DNA from: Candidatus Omnitrophota bacterium
GTDB taxonomy: Bacteria; Omnitrophota; Gorgyraeia; Duberdicusellales; 4484-171
DNA: 64,000 nucleotides
Assembly: GCA_021735045.1 (NCBI GenBank)
Contig: JAIPHU010000002.1
Span: 10,120-74,119, forward strand
Direction of reading: 5' to 3'
The notes beneath the pieces are model-generated. The model searched no databases. It had not been told where the DNA came from and saw nothing but the letters and a program-made list of their open reading frames with translations. A program made the position numbers and the translations under genes. This document shows positions 1,319-54,966 of the stretch, one piece after another (position 1 is the first letter of the stretch; each line of letters starts with the position of its first letter).

Positions 1319-3421
1319 ATGGCACGAAGAATCAGTTTAGAAAAAGTACGTAATATTGGAATTATGGCTCATATTGATGCCGGTAAGACAACACTTACCG
1401 AACGCATTCTTTTTTATACCGGGCGGTCGCATAAAATGGGGGAAGTCCATGATGGAGCTGCGGTAATGGATTGGATGAAACAAGAGCAAGAAAGAGGTAT
1501 AACCATAACTTCAGCGGCAACTACTTGTAGTTGGTTGGATCACAGAATAAATATAATCGATACTCCTGGCCACGTTGATTTTACTGTTGAAGTTGAACGT
1601 TCTTTGCGAGTTTTAGATGGATCAATTGCTGTATTTTGTGCTGTAGGTGGGGTGGAACCTCAGGCAGAAAAGGTATGGCATCAATCTGATAAATATGAAG
1701 TGCCAAAAATCGCTTTTGTAAATAAGATGGATAGGGCTGGAGCAAACTTTTTTGAAGTAGTCAAAGACATTGAAGAAGAGCTGGGGGCAAATGTTATCCC
1801 TTTACAAGTTCCTATTGGGGCTGAAGATAATTTTAGAGGAATAATCGATCTAATGGATATGAAAGCTTATATCTACGACGATGAGTCTTTAGGTAAAAAC
1901 TTTCACATTGAAGATATACCCACAGACTATCAAGATAAAGCTAAAGAGCATCATCATATAATGGTTGAAAAAGCTGTTGAACTAGATGATTCTTTAATGG
2001 AGAAGTATCTTGAGTCCGAAGATTCTATTTCAAAAGAGGAGCTGGTTAAAGCTATAAGAAGAGGCGTTATAGCCAATAAAATTGTTCCGGCAATGTGTGG
2101 TTCTGCCTTTAAGAATAAAGGGGTCCAGCGCCTTCTTGATGCGATAACTCTTTATCTTCCTTCTCCTCTGAATTTACCACCAGCTGAAGGAACAGATCCA
2201 AACGATCCTGAGAAAATAATTAAAAGAGAGCCTAAAGATGATGCACCTTTTTCAGCTTTGGCGTTTAAAGTACAAGCTGATCCTCATATGGGAAAACTGA
2301 TTTATTTTAGAGCTTACTCAGGCAAACTTGAGGCAGGCTCATATATTCAAAATGTAACCAAAGGAAAAAAAGAAAGAGTAGGGAGAATCTTACAGATGCA
2401 TGCAAATCAACGTGAAAGCCGCCCGGATATATATGCTGGTGATATTGCTGCAGCAGTAGGGCTTGATAATACTACAACAGGAGATACTTTAACTTCAGTT
2501 GAAGATCAAGTGTTGCTTGAGGCTATGGAGTTTCCCGCACCGGTTATGGCAATAAGTATTAAGCCAGAAAGTAATGCCGATCAAGATAAAATCTCAAAAG
2601 GCTTAAGCCGTTTAGCTGAAGAGGATCCCACTTTTACAGTTAAGACCGATAAAGAAACTGATGAAACTATTATATCAGGAATGGGGGAGCTACACCTTGA
2701 TGTTATTGTTGACCGCCTTAAGCGTGAGTTTGGTGTTTCAGCAAAAGTTGGAGCTCCTAAAGTTGCTTATCGGGAAACTATTTTAGGGACTACAAAAGAA
2801 GACTATAAGTATGCAAAACAAACTGGTGGCCGCGGCCAATACGGCCATGTTGTCTTAGAGCTATCACCATCTAAGTCTTCGGAAGGTTTTGATTTTATCA
2901 ATAGCATTAAAGGAGGGGCAATACCTCGTGAATATATTCCGGCTGTGGAAAAAGGGGTAATCGAGGTAATGAAAAAAGGTATTTATGCAGGGTTTCCGGT
3001 AGTTGATGTGAAGGTAAACTTAGTAGATGGTTCTTATCATGATGTGGATTCATCAGAATTTGCTTTTAAAATGACCGGAGGCGAGTGTTTTAAGAAAGCT
3101 TTTAATAAGTGTGAGCCAGTTTTATTAGAGCCTTCTATGTCAATTGAGATTACAACTCCGGAAGATTATGTGGGCGGAGTTGTGGGCGATATCTGTTCGC
3201 GTCGCGGTAAAGTTATAAATATAGATTCAAAAGGTAAACAACAACTAATTTCAGCAGAAGCCCCTTTAGCTGAAATGTTTGGCTATGCTAGTACTTTACG
3301 TTCTTTAAGTAGTGGGCGAGCAAATTATTCAATGCATTTTGAAAAATACGTACAAGTTCCTTATCAGATAGCAGAAAACATTATCGAAGAAAAGCAAAAA
3401 GAAAAGGAAGCAAAAAAATAA
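1319..3421 (+). CDS. fusA: translation elongation factor G (EF-G), probably a paralog located outside the str operon
   Basis: 700 aa. G1 motif AHIDAGKTT. Near-canonical N-terminus [42 protein letters not shown]. Domains IV/V are recognisable. No rpsL, rpsG or tuf neighbours. Confidence 0.95.
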
Positions 3422-24194: not shown

Positions 24195-24271
24195 AATTAA
24201 CCAATTAACCAATTAACCAATTAACCAATTAACCAATTAACCAATTAACCAATTAACCAATTAACCAATTA
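24195..24271 (+). repeat. about 9.6 perfect tandem copies of the octamer AATTAACC (CCAATTAA register) running directly into the ATG at 24272
   Basis: Counted directly: 9 full units, and the 10th unit is converted into the start codon (aattaATG). There is no Shine-Dalgarno sequence. Confidence 0.95.
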
Positions 24272-24985
24272 ATGCCTTACTCAATCCTTTTAGTTGATGA
24301 TGACAAAGTATTTCAGCAAGAATTCATAGCTTCTTTCGATGATTATTCAATCGTTCCTGCCTGTTCAGGAGAAGAAGCGCTAAAGATATTAAGCAAACCG
24401 CATGAAATCGATTTGGTTTTACTGGATGTGATGCTGCCTGGCCAACGGGGGACTAAAATCCTAAAAAAGTTAAAAAAAACCAAACCAGAGTTGAAAGTAA
24501 TAATTTTAACTGGTTACAGCAACAAAGATATTGCCATTGAGGCCTTAAAGGCTGATGCTGATGATTATCTGGAAAAGCCCCTTGATTTAGAAAAGGCAGC
24601 GGCTATCTTTGAACAATACTTAAAGTATGGAACCAAAAGGAGTAATTTAGGCGCAAGTAGTATTGAAGAAAAAATTGCCAGGGTAAAAGAGTATATCCAG
24701 CGCAACTACCATACCCAAGTTTCTTTAAATGATGCTGCAAAAATAGTTTTTTTAAGCCCGAAATACTTAAGCCGGGTTTTTGCAAAGGTAACCGGTCAAG
24801 GGTTTAATCAATTTAAGCTTTCTTGTAAGATTGACAAAGCCAAAGAGCTGCTTCAGAAAAGTTCCTTAACTATTGAACAGATTTCTTATCAATTAGGTTA
24901 TCAAAATATCGAATCTTTTGTCCGGATTTTTAAAAAGTTTACTGGTAAAAGACCGACTCAATTTCGTAAAAAAAAGAAAAAATGA
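24272..24985 (+). CDS. response regulator, REC + AraC-type HTH
   Basis: LLVDDD, LVLLDVMLPG and C-terminal AraC helix-turn-helix signatures (LSPKYLSRVF, SFVRIFKKFTG). Confidence 0.85.
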   Translation: MPYSILLVDDDKVFQQEFIASFDDYSIVPACSGEEALKILSKPHEIDLVLLDVMLPGQRGTKILKKLKKTKPELKVIILTGYSNKDIAIEALKADADDYLEKPLDLEKAAAIFEQYLKYGTKRSNLGASSIEEKIARVKEYIQRNYHTQVSLNDAAKIVFLSPKYLSRVFAKVTGQGFNQFKLSCKIDKAKELLQKSSLTIEQISYQLGYQNIESFVRIFKKFTGKRPTQFRKKKKK

Positions 24986-38186: not shown

Positions 38187-38214
38187 TTGCATCTTAGTTT
38201 ATCTTTAGTATCAT
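38187..38214 (+). promoter_or_regulatory. promoter TTGCAT-16-TATCAT ending 6 nt before the ATG, so the transcript is predicted leaderless or near-leaderless
   Basis: Read directly. Confidence 0.4.
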
Positions 38215-38220
38215 ATTATT

Positions 38221-38661
38221 ATGGCTATTGAATTATTTAAAAATTTATTTGGGAAAACTAAAAAAACTGCTAAAAAAGCAACAGTAAAAAAGAAAGTTAA
38301 AAAGAAAAAGTCTGCAAAAAAGAAAGTTAAAAAGAAAAAGTCTGCAAAAAAGAAAACAACTCCGAAAAAAAAGAAGAAAAAAGCAACTAAAAAGAAAAGC
38401 ATTAAAAAAGCCCAAGAAAAAGAAATAGGCGTAGTTACTCATTATTTTGGAAAGATTTCAGTAGGTATTATTAAGTTAAAAAGCAGTTTGAGCCTTGGAG
38501 ATAAAATAAAAATAAAAGGTGCTCACGTTGATTTTAACCAATCAATCAAATCGATGCAAATAAACCATAAGGATGTAGCTTCTGCGCGAAAAGGGGCTGA
38601 GGTGGGTGTTAAAGTAAAAAAGCGCGTTCATCCTAAAGATAAGGTATATAGGAAAATCTAA
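38221..38661 (+). CDS. lysine-rich histone H1-like DNA-binding protein with C-terminal beta-rich domain
   Basis: N-terminal 60 aa is about 60% Lys with KKKVKKKKSAKK repeated twice. Globular C-terminal tail of about 80 aa. Confidence 0.6.
   Translation: MAIELFKNLFGKTKKTAKKATVKKKVKKKKSAKKKVKKKKSAKKKTTPKKKKKKATKKKSIKKAQEKEIGVVTHYFGKISVGIIKLKSSLSLGDKIKIKGAHVDFNQSIKSMQINHKDVASARKGAEVGVKVKKRVHPKDKVYRKI
38291..38350 (+). repeat. perfect 30-nt tandem duplication (agaaagttaaaaagaaaaagtctgcaaaaa x2) inside the lysine-rich gene
   Basis: Counted directly. Confidence 0.95.
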
Positions 38662-42486: not shown

Positions 42487-42918
42487 ATGAAAAAGAAAGT
42501 ATTGTTTGTCTGTATCCATAATTCAGCTCGCAGCCAGATGGCGGAGGCGTTTTTGAATCAACTGGCTAGAGATAAGTTTGAAGCTGAAAGCGCGGGATTA
42601 GAGCCGGGTAAACTTAATCCGCTTGTGGTTAAGGTGATGCAAGAAGTTGGTATTGATATTTCCGCTAATAAAACAAAAAGTGTTTTTGATTTTTACAAGC
42701 AAGGTAAGTTGTATGATTATGTGATAACTGTTTGCGATGAATCTCAATCAGAACGCTGTCCGGTATTTCCCGGTGTAGCAAAAAAACTTCATTGGGGTTT
42801 TTCTGACCCGTCAAGTTTTTCCGGCACTGATCAAGAAAAATTAGAAAAAACCAGAAAGGTTAGAGATGAAATCAAAATGACCTTAGAAGAATGGTTTAAA
42901 ACCCATTGCACGGAATAA
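42487..42918 (+). CDS. arsC: thioredoxin-coupled arsenate reductase / LMW phosphatase family
   Basis: P-loop CIHNSARS (CX5R). Downstream Cys pair C..CP at about positions 84 and 92. Confidence 0.75.
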
Positions 42919-42928
42919 TTAATATTGT

Positions 42929-42952
42929 AGGGGCACATTGCAATGTGCCCCT
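42929..42952. repeat. perfect 24-nt palindrome AGGGGCACATTGCAATGTGCCCCT
   Basis: Read directly. Lies 10 nt after the arsC stop, with no T-run. Confidence 0.9.
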
Positions 42953-43004
42953 AGATGATCGTATGGAAAAATTTGGTTGTTCAATATCAAATTCTAAAAA
43001 TTTC

Positions 43005-43032
43005 TTACACAATCCTGTCTTTTTGTTATAAT
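43005..43032 (+). promoter_or_regulatory. promoter TTACAC-16-TATAAT ending 8 nt before the miaB-like ATG (predicted leaderless mRNA)
   Basis: Read directly. No Shine-Dalgarno sequence before the ATG at 43041. Confidence 0.45.
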
Positions 43033-43040
43033 GCCTTGCC

Positions 43041-44315
43041 ATGGGTAAAATTTACATTAAAACATTCGGCTGTCAGATGAATGATCGTGATTCGGAGGCT
43101 CTGCTCGGGCTTTTTTTACAGAAGGGGTATATTCAGGCAAAGTCCGAGAAAGATGCTGAGGTTATTTTGGTTAACACCTGCTCGGTACGTGATCATGCTG
43201 AAAACCGTGCCCTGTCGTTGTTGGGAACCTACAAGAAATTCAAGCAAGGTACCGAAGGACGATGGACGAAGGACGAGGGACAAAAGATGAAATCGTCTAA
43301 CGTCCGAGCGAAGCGGTCATCCATCGCCTCTCGGAAAGTTATTGGCCTCATTGGATGCATGGCGAAAAATAAGGGGGATGAAATTTTTAGTAAGATGCCG
43401 TATATTGATTTAATTTGTGGCCCTTCTGCCTTTTTTAAAATTCCGGAATATGTGGAAAGAATTAAGCGAAGTAAACGAAGTGAACGGAGTCCTGAGCGAC
43501 TGAAGGAAGTCCTGAGCGAAGCCGAAGGGCGACCGAAGGGAGTCGAAGGAGATAAAGGTTTAAGGATAAAGGATCTAGAGGATAGAGATAGAGACGAAAG
43601 TTTTTATGACAGTGTTTACCGTAAAGAGCCAGATCATGCCCAAGTAGTTATTTCCACCGGTTGTTCCAATTTTTGTGCCTACTGTATTGTGCCTCATACT
43701 CGCGGCAGACTTCGGCCGAGAAATCCGGATAAGATAATCGCTGAGATAAAGGAGAATATAAAACAAGACAGGAGAAAGATTACTTTATTGGGCCAAAACG
43801 TCAATGACTATCATTTTAAGTCACAAGTTATTAATTTTGTGGAATTATTGAGAAAAATCGATAAAATTGAGGGGTTGGAAGAGTTGGATTTTGTAACTAG
43901 CCATCCCAAAAACACCTGCCAAGAACTATTTAAAGTAATGGCTGAATCTGATAAAATTAAAAAACATCTTCACCTGCCTTTTCAATCCGGCTCAAACCGG
44001 ATTTTAAAGTTAATGAGGAGGGGCTACAGTAGAGAAGAATATATTGAACTCACTAATCAATATAAACAAATAACCGGCGGGACTTTGGGAACAGATATTA
44101 TCATTGGGTTTCCCAGTGAAACCGAAGAAGATTTTAATCAAACTAAAAGTTTGGTAGAAGAAGTAGGTTTTAAGTATGCTTTTATCTTTAAGTACTCTCC
44201 GCGCTTAAAAACTAAAGCAGCAGAAATGGTAGATGATGTTTTAGAAAAAGTTAAAAGCAGACGTCACAAGAAACTTCTTGATTTACAAAAAGAAATTTCT
44301 GCTTCAATAAAATGA
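43041..44315 (+). CDS. miaB: MiaB-like methylthiotransferase (MTTase N-domain + radical SAM) lacking a TRAM domain, with two charged in-frame insertions
   Basis: IYIKTFGCQMNDRDSE start. Radical SAM motif CSNFCAYCIVPHTRG. Insertions at about aa 70-100 and 150-205. Ends right after the radical SAM core. Confidence 0.8.
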   Translation: MGKIYIKTFGCQMNDRDSEALLGLFLQKGYIQAKSEKDAEVILVNTCSVRDHAENRALSLLGTYKKFKQGTEGRWTKDEGQKMKSSNVRAKRSSIASRKVIGLIGCMAKNKGDEIFSKMPYIDLICGPSAFFKIPEYVERIKRSKRSERSPERLKEVLSEAEGRPKGVEGDKGLRIKDLEDRDRDESFYDSVYRKEPDHAQVVISTGCSNFCAYCIVPHTRGRLRPRNPDKIIAEIKENIKQDRRKITLLGQNVNDYHFKSQVINFVELLRKIDKIEGLEELDFVTSHPKNTCQELFKVMAESDKIKKHLHLPFQSGSNRILKLMRRGYSREEYIELTNQYKQITGGTLGTDIIIGFPSETEEDFNQTKSLVEEVGFKYAFIFKYSPRLKTKAAEMVDDVLEKVKSRRHKKLLDLQKEISASIK

Positions 44316-45067
44316 CAAATAAAAAAACAATTAGTATATACTTACTTAGTTTGTCTTTTATCCTTTATTTTTTATCCTTTCCTGCTTATCCAGCTTCTCT
44401 AGAAGATGCACAGCGCCAGTATTTGTTTGGTAATTTAGATAAAGCCGTTAGGTTAGCAAAAAGATTAAGAAGTAGTGCCCAAAATATTTATTTTTTAGGG
44501 CTTGTATATATTAAGAAAAAAGAATACAGAAAAGCTCGCTATTACTTTAAAAAAATAATTGATAATTATCAAAATTCTTATTTTTATCAAAAAAGTCAAA
44601 TCAAACTAGCAGATAGTTATTTTTTTGAAGGTAGCTATCAAAAAGCCAATCAGCTATTCACTAATATTTTAAATAAGAAAAACCAGAAAAACGATGAACC
44701 TTTGATTTTGCTTCGCTTGGCCCAAGTTGCGGCCAAACAGGGAAAGTGGGCCGATAAAGAAAAGTATTCAACTGTTTTAAAAAATAGATATCCCAATTCT
44801 TTAGAAATTAAATATATTAAGATTCTTGATTCTTACGGAAGTTTTTTCACTGTACAAATTGGTGCTTTTAGCGATAAAAGCAACGCTTTAAATCTATATA
44901 ATCAAATCTCGAAAGATTTTGATGACCATGTTTTTATTGTTGAAAAAAAGAACCAGGACTTTCCTATCTACAAGGTAAGAGTAGGGAAGTTTAAAGATCG
45001 TTATTCGGTAGAAAAATTGGCGGAAAAATTACAAAATCAAGGTTACCCAACCAGAATTTATCCCTAA
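44312..45067 (+). CDS. TPR + SPOR-domain protein
   Basis: Signal/anchor peptide. C-terminal SPOR fold pattern FTVQIGAFSDKSNA...YKVRVGKF. Confidence 0.65.
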   Translation: MTNKKTISIYLLSLSFILYFLSFPAYPASLEDAQRQYLFGNLDKAVRLAKRLRSSAQNIYFLGLVYIKKKEYRKARYYFKKIIDNYQNSYFYQKSQIKLADSYFFEGSYQKANQLFTNILNKKNQKNDEPLILLRLAQVAAKQGKWADKEKYSTVLKNRYPNSLEIKYIKILDSYGSFFTVQIGAFSDKSNALNLYNQISKDFDDHVFIVEKKNQDFPIYKVRVGKFKDRYSVEKLAEKLQNQGYPTRIYP

Positions 45068-46026
45068 TGTCTAAAATTATATTTATTGTAGGGCCGACGG
45101 CTACGGGAAAAAGTGATGTTGCCTATCTTTTGGCAAAAAGGCTCAAGGCAGAAATTATTTCCTGTGATTCGATGTTAGTCTATAAGGAGCCAAAGATAAT
45201 TACAGCAAAACCTGCAAAAAAAATGTTATCAGATATTCCGCATCATTTTATAAATTTAATTTCAGTTACTGAGAAATACAGCGTTTATGATTATTATCAA
45301 AAAGCAACCAAAAAAATAAAAGAACTTTATAACCAGAATATTCCGGCAGTTGTCTGTGGTGGAACCGGCCTTTATTTTAAGGTGCTTTTAGATGGGATTT
45401 TTTTACAATCAAAAAAGGATGACAGCCTACGAAAAAAACTTTATCAACAGGCTAAAGAGGGAGGGCTTGGAGTTCTATATAAAAAGTTGAGCCGGGTTGA
45501 TCCCAAAACTAGCGAAAAGATTTCCGAAAACGACCAAAAAAGAATTATAAGAGCCTTAGAGGTATATTACCTTACTGGCAAGCCTATATCTTCTAAGAAA
45601 AAAGAAGCCAAAGGTCTTTGGGGTAAAACCCCGATTAAGGTCTTTGGCCTAAAGTTAGATCGAGGTAAGTTGTATGAGAGAATAGAGCAAAGGGTAGATG
45701 ACATGTTTAGCCAAGGAGCTATAGACGAGGTCAAGGGTTTATTAGATAAAAAACTGAGTTTAACTGCTGAAAAAATTATCGGCATCAATGAAATAAAAGA
45801 TTATTTGAAAAATAAAGGGGACAGTCTCCATACAGGGACAGTTCCCCTAGTTGGGGAAGCAAAAGAAAAGATAAAACAAAATACGCGCCGGTTTGCAAAA
45901 AGGCAAATCACTTGGTTTAAAAAAGACCCGCGGATAGAATGGATTGACGCCGAAGGTATGGCTGCTGAAGAAGTAGCAAATATGATAAGATGCAAGATGC
46001 AGGGAGCAAAAGGAGATAAACAATAA
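45067..46026 (+). CDS. miaA: tRNA dimethylallyltransferase
   Basis: P-loop GPTATGKS. Typical MiaA length of 319 aa. Confidence 0.9.
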   Translation: MSKIIFIVGPTATGKSDVAYLLAKRLKAEIISCDSMLVYKEPKIITAKPAKKMLSDIPHHFINLISVTEKYSVYDYYQKATKKIKELYNQNIPAVVCGGTGLYFKVLLDGIFLQSKKDDSLRKKLYQQAKEGGLGVLYKKLSRVDPKTSEKISENDQKRIIRALEVYYLTGKPISSKKKEAKGLWGKTPIKVFGLKLDRGKLYERIEQRVDDMFSQGAIDEVKGLLDKKLSLTAEKIIGINEIKDYLKNKGDSLHTGTVPLVGEAKEKIKQNTRRFAKRQITWFKKDPRIEWIDAEGMAAEEVANMIRCKMQGAKGDKQ

Positions 46027-48474: not shown

Positions 48475-48498
48475 ACCAATTAACCAATTAACCAAATT
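48475..48498 (+). repeat. 2.5 copies of CCAATTAA abutting the clpB ATG (same octamer as at 24195..24271)
   Basis: ccaattaaccaattaaccaaatt + ATG. No Shine-Dalgarno sequence. Confidence 0.9.
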
Positions 48499-54863: not shown

Positions 54864-54896
54864 ATAGCTCATAGCTCTTAGCTCATGGCTCATAGT
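54864..54896 (+). repeat. imperfect tandem heptamers (AGCTCAT)x4 immediately after dnaK
   Basis: tatAGCTCATAGCTCTTAGCTCATGGCTCATag. Reverse-complementary to the array at 54932..54958. Confidence 0.85.
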
Positions 54897-54931
54897 TTTA
54901 CAGGACATTTAATTTTTTCGGTAAACTATTA

Positions 54932-54958
54932 GCGATGAGCCATCAGCCATGAGCCAAG
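54932..54958 (+). repeat. tandem heptamers (ATGAGCC-like x3), the inverse complement of the 54864 array, overlapping candidate dnaJ start codons
   Basis: gcgATGAGCCATCAGCCATGAGCCaag. Confidence 0.85.
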
Positions 54959-54966
54959 AACTAATT

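Follow-up and report, generated by a model that had tools for sequence, protein, structure and literature searches.

How a tRNA methylthiotransferase of the MiaB family functions once its C-terminal TRAM domain is gone, and what the GC-rich segments that interrupt such an enzyme are, are the questions raised by a miaB gene at 43041..44315 of the stretch studied here, comprising 64,000 nucleotides (nt) of a Candidatus Omnitrophota bacterium (GenBank assembly GCA_021735045.1, contig JAIPHU010000002.1, positions 10,120 to 74,119 of the forward strand) and referred to as a whole as the 64-kb window. The account that we consider probable, taken in its entirety, is that the MiaB core is active without TRAM and that the inserts are younger, tolerated passengers. 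The two-domain core, an auxiliary [4Fe-4S] methylthiotransferase (MTTase) domain plus a radical SAM domain, would most likely still convert N6-isopentenyladenosine at tRNA position 37 (i6A37) to its 2-methylthio derivative (ms2i6A37), with the i6A37 substrate supplied by co-transcribed MiaA. A single deletion at the boundary with a TPR/SPOR gene, in the common ancestor of a large clade of Omnitrophota, would have removed TRAM, and the shortened enzyme would then have been retained by strong purifying selection. Since TRAM would thus have been lost from an enzyme kept under selection, tRNA binding would presumably rest on the two remaining domains, possibly aided by MiaA. The GC-rich inserts would form a separate layer, much younger than the TRAM loss. 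The parts of the gene that bear on its identity are the following.

43041..44315, plus strand: TRAM-less miaB open reading frame (ORF), 424 amino acids (aa) (ORF list, Pfam, NCBIfam, structure alignment)
43047..43421, plus strand: N-terminal UPF0004 domain of the MTTase, split by insert 1 (Pfam PF00919, aa 3-127, E 7e-26)
43644..44150, plus strand: radical SAM domain (Pfam PF04055, aa 202-370, E 1e-25)
43662-43685, plus strand: CxxxCxxC motif C208/C212/C215, cysteines invariant in the orthologue alignment
44244..44315, plus strand: C-terminal helix aa 402-422 and stop codon, where canonical MiaB starts TRAM (structure alignment, AlphaFold)

A Pfam search of the 424-aa ORF returned nothing of weight besides UPF0004 and Radical_SAM. 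The auxiliary-cluster cysteines of the MTTase domain are C11, C47, and C106. In an alignment of 36 orthologues, C47, C106, C208, C212, and C215 are invariant, and C11 is not, having been lost from N-terminally truncated gene calls. With both Pfam domains and all six cluster cysteines present, the initial annotation was right to describe the MTTase and radical SAM domains as intact. The NCBIfam MiaB equivalog TIGR01574 is passed marginally (355.4 bits against a cut-off of 355.3), with a match that covers profile positions only up to 372 of 437, and the competing models score lower (MtaB, 243 bits; RimO, 221 bits). Alignment to the 457-aa Bacteroides uniformis MiaB in structure 7MJV places query residues 3-70, 100-146, and 202-422 on chain residues 19-86, 91-136, and 165-390, with a linker of 55 aa in the query versus 28 aa in 7MJV; the query stops at 7MJV residue ~390-392, and TRAM would span about 392-457. 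An AlphaFold model that used the 36 orthologues (mean predicted local distance difference test [pLDDT] 84.9, predicted template modelling score 0.81) has a long helix, 402-422, as its last element and low-confidence parts at aa 70-99 (pLDDT ~51) and aa 150-175 (~56-70). Its top Foldseek matches are the MiaB-RNA complexes 7MJY and 7MJZ (E 3.7e-33, TM 0.76, ~35% identity). As judged from its sequence, this is the miaB orthologue of Omnitrophota.

A diverged methylthiotransferase acting on something other than tRNA, as the initial annotation had offered, a gene that is decaying or truncated, or an artefact of assembly might also present itself as a protein whose RNA-binding domain is gone, whose NCBIfam score is barely at the MiaB cut-off, and some copies of which are labelled 'partial' by NCBI. 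We regard this family of explanations as highly improbable. The MiaB score lies far above those of RimO and MtaB, the linkage of miaB to miaA and hflX is tight and kept, no variation is seen in the catalytic residues, the miaB stop shares bases with the start of the next gene, and over 180 sequences taken from independent assemblies have one and the same C-terminal end point. When the window is compared with the four relatives nearest to it, core dN/dS (the ratio of nonsynonymous to synonymous substitution) is 0.03-0.13 at dS of at least 1.1, and because of these values the two-domain enzyme is judged to be functional and selected, neither a pseudogene nor an artefact.

The extent of the TRAM loss was assessed in 80 related loci (L numbers below), one genome per species in GTDB, and in 120 protein clusters, the closest to this one, of 47-100% identity and 347-523 aa. 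TRAM is absent from all 120 clusters, whose C-termini end a few residues (0-20 aa) past the 'LQKxIS' helix, and in 64 of the 80 loci the ORF ends 0-20 aa after the match, the other 16 carrying a C-terminal extension. A TRAM hidden Markov model (HMM) seeded with the extensions of these 16 loci and E. coli MiaB recognises the extensions as TRAM. Pfam also detects TRAM in L071 and L073 and misses the divergent TRAM of L051 and L033, so that Pfam absence alone is weak evidence; TRAM-less calls were based on C-terminal length together with the custom HMM. This HMM gave no match in the 64-kb window, read in six frames, nor in any frame within ~8 kb of the TRAM-less loci. When a neighbour-joining tree was rooted on E. 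coli, TRAM-bearing Verrucomicrobia, Victivallales, and Omnitrophota were basal, and the TRAM-less sequences formed one large nested Omnitrophota clade plus a second small loss (L064, L066). The absence of TRAM that the initial annotation had noticed in this one gene, and that Pfam, the end of the TIGR01574 match, and the 7MJV alignment all bear out, is by this phylogeny an ancient, clade-wide loss.

Earlier work on the domain offers some context for an enzyme lacking it. When TRAM was swapped between MiaB and MtaB of B. subtilis, i6A specificity was unchanged, and TRAM has been proposed to be a non-specific RNA clamp (PMC2952846). PMC10702137, which relays the MiaB crystal structures second-hand, reports that tRNA is contacted by all three domains and that the isopentenyl pocket is formed from the MTTase and radical SAM domains, both of which are kept here.

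The genes and signals that flank miaB are as follows.

43004..43032, plus strand: promoter-like site just ahead of the miaB start, CTTACA, 17-nt spacer, TATAAT, with an upstream TG (consensus scan 10/12, a consensus match only)
44312..45067, plus strand: TPR/SPOR protein with signal peptide and no TRAM (Pfam, TRAM HMM)
45067..46026, plus strand: miaA, tRNA dimethylallyltransferase, source of the i6A37 substrate for MiaB (Pfam IPPT, E 2e-75)

The miaB stop overlaps the TPR/SPOR start as ATGA, and through this overlap the TPR/SPOR gene is predicted to be translationally coupled to miaB. Two further statements of the initial annotation hold here, namely that the next ORF does not supply the missing domain (it encodes TPR/SPOR and is negative with the TRAM HMM) and that miaA is close by, with one gene between it and miaB. 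With few exceptions, Omnitrophota loci preserve the order miaB-(TPR/SPOR)-miaA-hflX, whether they are TRAM-bearing or not (about 70 loci). The nearest relatives (L002, L082, L083/L084, and L085) have no TPR/SPOR gene, and miaA lies directly 3' of miaB; the gene is retained in the window and in most other Omnitrophota. In three loci, miaB is fused in-frame to the downstream transmembrane TPR-SPOR protein (L051 17-2062, L068 8001-10148, and L064 5497-7107), and Pfam finds UPF0004, Radical_SAM, TPR, and SPOR within single ORFs of L051 and L064. The fused proteins of L051 and L068 carry a TRAM-like segment, and that of L064 is without one. Such a fusion would tether MiaB to the membrane.

The second question concerns the segments that interrupt the enzyme, which together with their surroundings comprise the following features.

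43248..43337, plus strand: insert 1, aa 70-99, loop between helix 51-67 and strand 100-105 (occupancy ~0-0.3, pLDDT ~51)
43253..43281, plus strand: tandem array of the heptamer CGAAGGA, 4.1 copies, 86% matches, serving as 5' arm of the insert 1 hairpin (Tandem Repeats Finder [TRF], direct-repeat family D1)
43252..43334, no strand assigned: insert 1 hairpin, the array plus its imperfect inverse, arms 43252-43269 and 43317-43334 (inverted repeat I5, fold z)
43476..43559, plus strand: insert 2, aa 146-173, degenerate CGAAG-containing direct repeats (occupancy ~0, TRF, repeat D2)
43551..43593, plus strand: linker 'DKGLRIKDLEDRDR', whose DNA is heptamer-like (GATAAAG / AGGATAG) (TRF periods 7 and 14)
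43812..43835, plus strand: variable site 3, aa 258-265, a remnant of ~1.7 heptamers AAGTCACAAGTT at 43818-43829 (comparison with L083)
43440..43567, plus strand: 128-nt block identical to L082, spanning insert 2 (longest exact match)

In an alignment with 120 orthologues, low-occupancy columns are confined to aa ~72-95 and ~146-173. There are therefore two inserts, as first described, at sizes other than the ~30 and ~55 aa then given: insert 1 adds about 25 residues (29 aa against 4 aa in 7MJV) and insert 2 about 28 aa. The segment 'LRIKDLEDRDRDESFYD', which had been counted as part of an insertion, is conserved family sequence (alignment occupancy ~0.9), and the linker peptide 'DKGLRIKDLEDRDR' is family-conserved as well. 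That the inserts are surface loops agrees with their modelling as low-confidence loops (pLDDT about 50-70). A third hypervariable loop, 'VNDY...F' at aa 258-265, is short here and reaches up to 64 aa elsewhere.

The insert DNA is indeed GC-richer than its surroundings, with GC of 0.54 at 43248-43337 and 0.57 at 43476-43559 versus 0.37 for the ORF outside the inserts and 0.347 for the window as a whole; equal-length window segments reach these values in 0.2% (insert 1) and 0.05% (insert 2) of cases. The proposed enrichment in CGAAGG also stands, with 5 of the 14 plus-strand sites of the window falling within 43243-43610 where 0.08 were expected, and both copies of AGTCCTGAGCGA in the window lie here. 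The repeat unit of insert 1 is not the hexamer first proposed; it is the heptamer CGAAGGA, and the array is followed by its imperfect inverse to give a hairpin (fold z -2.35 for the sense [plus] strand and -3.94 for the antisense [minus] strand). The repeats of insert 2 (D2, 43481-43499 and 43501-43519) have periods of 9 and 20, are non-heptameric, and form no hairpin (fold z ~0). Three 7-nt units amount to 21 nt, or 7 aa, by which the reading frame is kept. No other copies of either insert's motifs were found in the 64-kb window, and no intrinsic terminator was found in this window's miaB. Peptide searches for the insert sequences in other proteins gave no hit, there being no candidate with three 5-residue words in common. 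A known RNA family within the inserts was ruled out by the lack of any Rfam match at E <= 1 over 42800-44500.

Elsewhere in the window, the dnaK-dnaJ spacer contains a hairpin at 54865-54963 with arms of about four TAGCTCA units and about three copies of the inverse ATGAGCC. It shares the architecture of insert 1, differs in unit and in being intergenic, and is the sole other such structure in the 64 kb. A perfect 8-nt array, AATTAACC x 9.8, occupies 24195-24272 between genes, directly upstream of the ORF starting at 24272, and 48475-48495 holds a short array related to it, ACCAATTA x 2.6. An A-rich 30-nt tandem repeat, AAAAAAGAAAGTTAAAAAGAAAAAGTCTGC x 2.3 with 100% matches, is found at 38273-38369 inside a lysine-rich 150-aa ORF (38209-38658).

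Comparison with close relatives indicates how quickly the inserts change. In a codon alignment of the window with L002, L082, L083, and L085 (71-79% aa identity), the site 1 hairpin is common to the window, L002, and in part L083, where a new (AAGTCCA)n array overwrote the 5' arm; L082 and L085 have (AAATTCG)x4 in its place. At site 2 the insert is common to the window and L082 and is lacking in L083 and L085, and L002 carries (CGAGGGA)x4.6 with the same opening, GGTACCGA(A/G)GGACGA, as site 1 of the window. At site 3, where the window has AAGTCACAAGTT, L083 is longer by 21 nt, exactly three extra AGTCACA units. An (AAGTCCA)n array at site 3 of L002 (~855-915) encloses a 21-nt GC-rich palindrome, CTGCCTCGCCGGCAGGCGGGC, an arrangement akin to that of the small dispersed repeats that lie within heptamer repeats in Nostoc. 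No sign of terminal inverted repeats or of target-site duplications, for which no dedicated search was run, was noticed at the insert boundaries in the codon alignment.

Two observations bear on how the insert sequences move. The longest exact match between the window and L082 is the 128-nt block at 43440-43567, the next longest being 42 nt, and sliding identity peaks locally at insert 2. Because this identity exists despite a core dS of 1.1 and saturated synonymous sites, it indicates that the block is a recent recombination patch. In addition, array units are shared (at most one mismatch, any rotation or strand) by 13 of 31 pairs that lie in or beside one miaB gene and by 47 of 872 pairs between loci (Fisher p = 1e-8), and this difference points to copying within a locus rather than independent slippage at each site. 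Hence the initial proposal that simple-sequence expansion created the loops holds for their repetitive origin and not as the sole origin, in view of the hairpins, the within-locus copying, and the recombination patches. Of the orthologues that it proposed to check, some carry insertions and many do not. As for its concern over artefacts, independent assemblies (L002, L082, and L083) contain insert 1 at 84-88% identity and insert 2 at 100%, and because they are found again in this way the inserts are taken not to be artefacts.

Repeats of this kind extend well beyond the closest relatives. In 1.02 Mb of related loci, TRF found 48 period-7, 21 period-14, and 16 period-21 arrays, against 0, 6, and 0, respectively, on shuffles. 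Autocorrelation of the three-site insert DNA of the 80 relatives at lags 7/14/21 was 0.40/0.37/0.35 versus about 0.25-0.28 in the core and a background of about 0.26, and the conserved core showed weak codon periodicity only. The corresponding 7-aa periods are visible in orthologue inserts as TKDEGRR, KSKVQSP, KFEIRNS, SQVTSHK, and AESRKLK, and perfect arrays of 4-4.6 copies occur in L004 and L024. Among long inserts, stable hairpins (z < -3) were found in 8 of 28 at site 1, 9 of 23 at site 2, and 4 of 22 at site 3, compared with 0/81 and 2/81 core control segments. A second type of element consists of an A-run, GGGGACAGTCCCC, 7 nt, GGGGACAGTCCCC, and a T-run; L037 has it at each of the three sites, and ten more loci carry it. 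In L037 (4300-4870) it measures ~45 nt, stands in frame at all three loops, and encodes ...MGTVPKRRGQSPFF...; these elements fit the intrinsic-terminator consensus at 5 sites versus 1.7 in shuffles. The GGGGACAGTCCCC-pair element was also seen in L020, L025, L027, L029, L034, L039, and L047. A phage origin of the GGGGACAGTCCCC pair was rejected on the basis of 0 IMG/VR hits. Likewise, CGAAGGA is no Omnitrophota-specific element: (CGAAGGA)x3 is present in metagenome contigs, at least 120 of them, that range in GC from 0.42 to 0.72 and come mostly from high-GC organisms.

Drawing on these patterns, we propose that the three disordered loops collect heptamer arrays, array-inverse hairpins, and other small palindromes. 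These loop repeats would grow and shrink in 21-nt steps, would be overwritten by new arrays and copied between sites of one locus, and may be swapped between lineages as short recombination patches. The inserts would mainly be tolerated passengers.

The initial annotation had suggested that the basic loops substitute for TRAM, in which case selection would have favoured basic, disordered inserts as an electrostatic surface for tRNA binding. Several properties are in keeping with such a role. Lysine makes up 15.9% of inserted residues versus 9.2% otherwise, S, Q, T, N, and R are enriched as well, the loops are predicted by AlphaFold to be flexible, and 98% of orthologues have a net positive site 1 (mean charge +4, with sites 2 and 3 at ~+1.2). 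The charge of site 1 includes a conserved 'KKLKK' anchor, however, and B. uniformis MiaB is also basic at this site. Many TRAM-less orthologues are minimal-looped, at 347-370 aa (e.g., 'FKKSSVIV / IQKENTRI / VNDYSDF' in one of 347 aa), inserts are also present in TRAM-bearing Omnitrophota (L033, L061, L068, L071, and L073), and insert sequences are not conserved, those at the same site being unrelated between relatives of 70-80% identity. Because the inserts are hypervariable, missing in many TRAM-less orthologues, and present in TRAM-bearing ones, their acting as a TRAM replacement is unlikely, and selection of the inserts as a tRNA-binding surface in place of the domain strikes us as improbable. 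The inserts may nevertheless make a small electrostatic contribution, or acidic loops close to the tRNA surface may be selected against.

The distribution of the repeats within the operon raises a further issue. Within the one genomic neighbourhood to which the comparison was confined, period-7 arrays number 31 in miaB (101.9 kb), 2 in miaA (68.2 kb), and 0 in hflX (83.6 kb), and the TPR/SPOR gene has 7, all within the first ~75 nt of its frame, at the miaB junction. For periods 7, 14, and 21 combined, 37 of 89 arrays lie inside miaB, which makes up 10% of the bases (p = 7e-15), and GGGACWGTCCC has 26 copies inside miaB against a single one in the 0.9 Mb around it. These counts, the perfect arrays of 4-4.6 copies in some orthologues, the recurrence of one terminator-like hairpin flanked by an A-run and a T-run at all three L037 sites, and the frequency with which assemblies break at or near the gene would all be in line with miaB being targeted or regulated, either through hairpins within the ORF that act on mRNA or DNA (for instance by translation-coupled attenuation of miaB-miaA-hflX or by protein binding) or through 7-nt slippage that gives phase variation of ms2i6A. 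Against this stand the variation of the elements in sequence, site, and strand preference by lineage, the many orthologues without them, the short and imperfect arrays of the window itself, the lack of any frameshifted allele among the 80 loci, and the lack of an Rfam match. Autoregulation through UNN codons, in which inserts rich in codons decoded by ms2i6A tRNAs would provide feedback, was rejected, U-starting codons being depleted in the inserts (13.6% versus 18.5% in the core). Overall, we find a targeted or regulated miaB rather unlikely. In a version that retains an enzyme working without TRAM, miaB would be a targeted hot spot, with lineage-specific arrays and terminator-like palindromes copied into the three loops and both flanks by local templating or selection, in the service of translation-coupled control of miaB-miaA-hflX or of on/off slippage of ms2i6A; this we hold to be possible, though not likely.

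The 5' end of miaB has peculiarities of its own. Contigs end exactly at its FGCQMN codons (aa 9-14) in at least 7 independent assemblies (L012, L015, L050, L056, L063, L065, and L066, each at position 1), and ~20 of the 80 contigs end within ~130 nt of the miaB 5' end. In L083, a gene for a 553-aa large serine recombinase (1412-3073) overlaps the miaB start, and the MiaB N-terminus beside this overlap differs (MPEKSREIRQNSPRV...). Because of the contig breaks and the recombinase overlap, the data suggest that the miaB 5' end may be an integration site or a strain-variable region.

Several points weigh against the account of an active two-domain MiaB with passenger inserts. No paper on a TRAM-less MiaB was found in the literature search, and a stand-alone TRAM protein may be encoded beyond the 64 kb and ~8-kb flanks that were searched. 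The positive charge of site 1 is unexplained if the inserts are passengers and is compatible with some selection for RNA affinity. The preference for miaB (31 versus 2 versus 0 arrays; 26 versus 1 palindromes) is likewise left unexplained, and permissive loops alone are not obviously enough to account for an excess of at least 15-fold over the operon partners.

Set beside known systems, the enzyme resembles MiaB of B. uniformis (7MJV-7MJZ) and E. coli (b0661) in the three MTTase cysteines, the radical SAM CxxxCxxC motif, the passing of the NCBIfam equivalog cut-off, and the operon with miaA. It differs in lacking the whole C-terminal TRAM (~65 aa) and in having ~25-aa and ~28-aa inserts in two loops. 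The inserts can be compared with bacterial heptamer simple sequence repeats, which are over-represented, mostly intergenic, and fast-varying between close relatives, and which include the short tandemly repeated repetitive (STRR) sequences of Calothrix and Nostoc, GGGAATC of Xanthomonas, and TAACTGA of Beggiatoaceae (PMC4692102; PMC4679880). Both have tandem 7-nt units, often in ~4-5 copies and sometimes as inverted arrays forming stem-loops. Whereas known heptamer repeats are under-represented in coding DNA (PMC4692102), those described here are concentrated in one gene, that of a housekeeping enzyme, inside which they lie in-frame, all three frames being read as 7-aa periods.

Rickettsia palindromic elements (RPEs) are in-frame palindromes in conserved metabolic genes that add a peptide at fold-compatible positions (PMC10969869). 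As with RPEs and in-frame miniature inverted-repeat transposable elements, the hairpin of insert 1 keeps the host frame, which does not extend to insert 2, as it is not a hairpin. RPEs are ~150 bp long and belong to few dispersed families found in many unrelated host genes, whereas the elements here are 20-100 nt in length and derive from lineage-specific heptamers, and no second copy of an insert was found in the 64-kb window. The tandem repeats of Borg ORFs evolve fast and add disordered K/S/T/P-rich segments (PMC9879509), and thus also build disordered protein from nucleotide repeats. In Borg ORFs the unit length is a multiple of three; with the 7-nt unit of miaB, the frame is kept by total length only, and a change of one unit would shift it. 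Phase-variable loci have long, perfect intragenic tracts of a non-triplet unit, along with frameshift alleles in the population; the unit in miaB is likewise non-triplet, the tract in the window is short and imperfect (4.1 copies, 86%), and the perfect tracts of L004 and L024 have 4-4.6 copies. What is new is the combination of known features, namely heptamer simple sequence repeats, in-frame palindromes, and disorder-building repeats, on a TRAM-less enzyme.

In sum, our preferred reading of an active MiaB core without TRAM that carries tolerated inserts is relevant to enzyme and genome evolution alike. The three loops show how non-triplet repeats build new disordered segments in a housekeeping enzyme, and if the preference for miaB were to hold genome-wide, it would point to an undescribed local copying mechanism or regulatory use. 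All methylthiotransferases are held to be defined by three domains, TRAM among them, and a clade-wide, apparently selected two-domain MiaB encoded beside miaA would constitute a natural experiment on the need for this domain.

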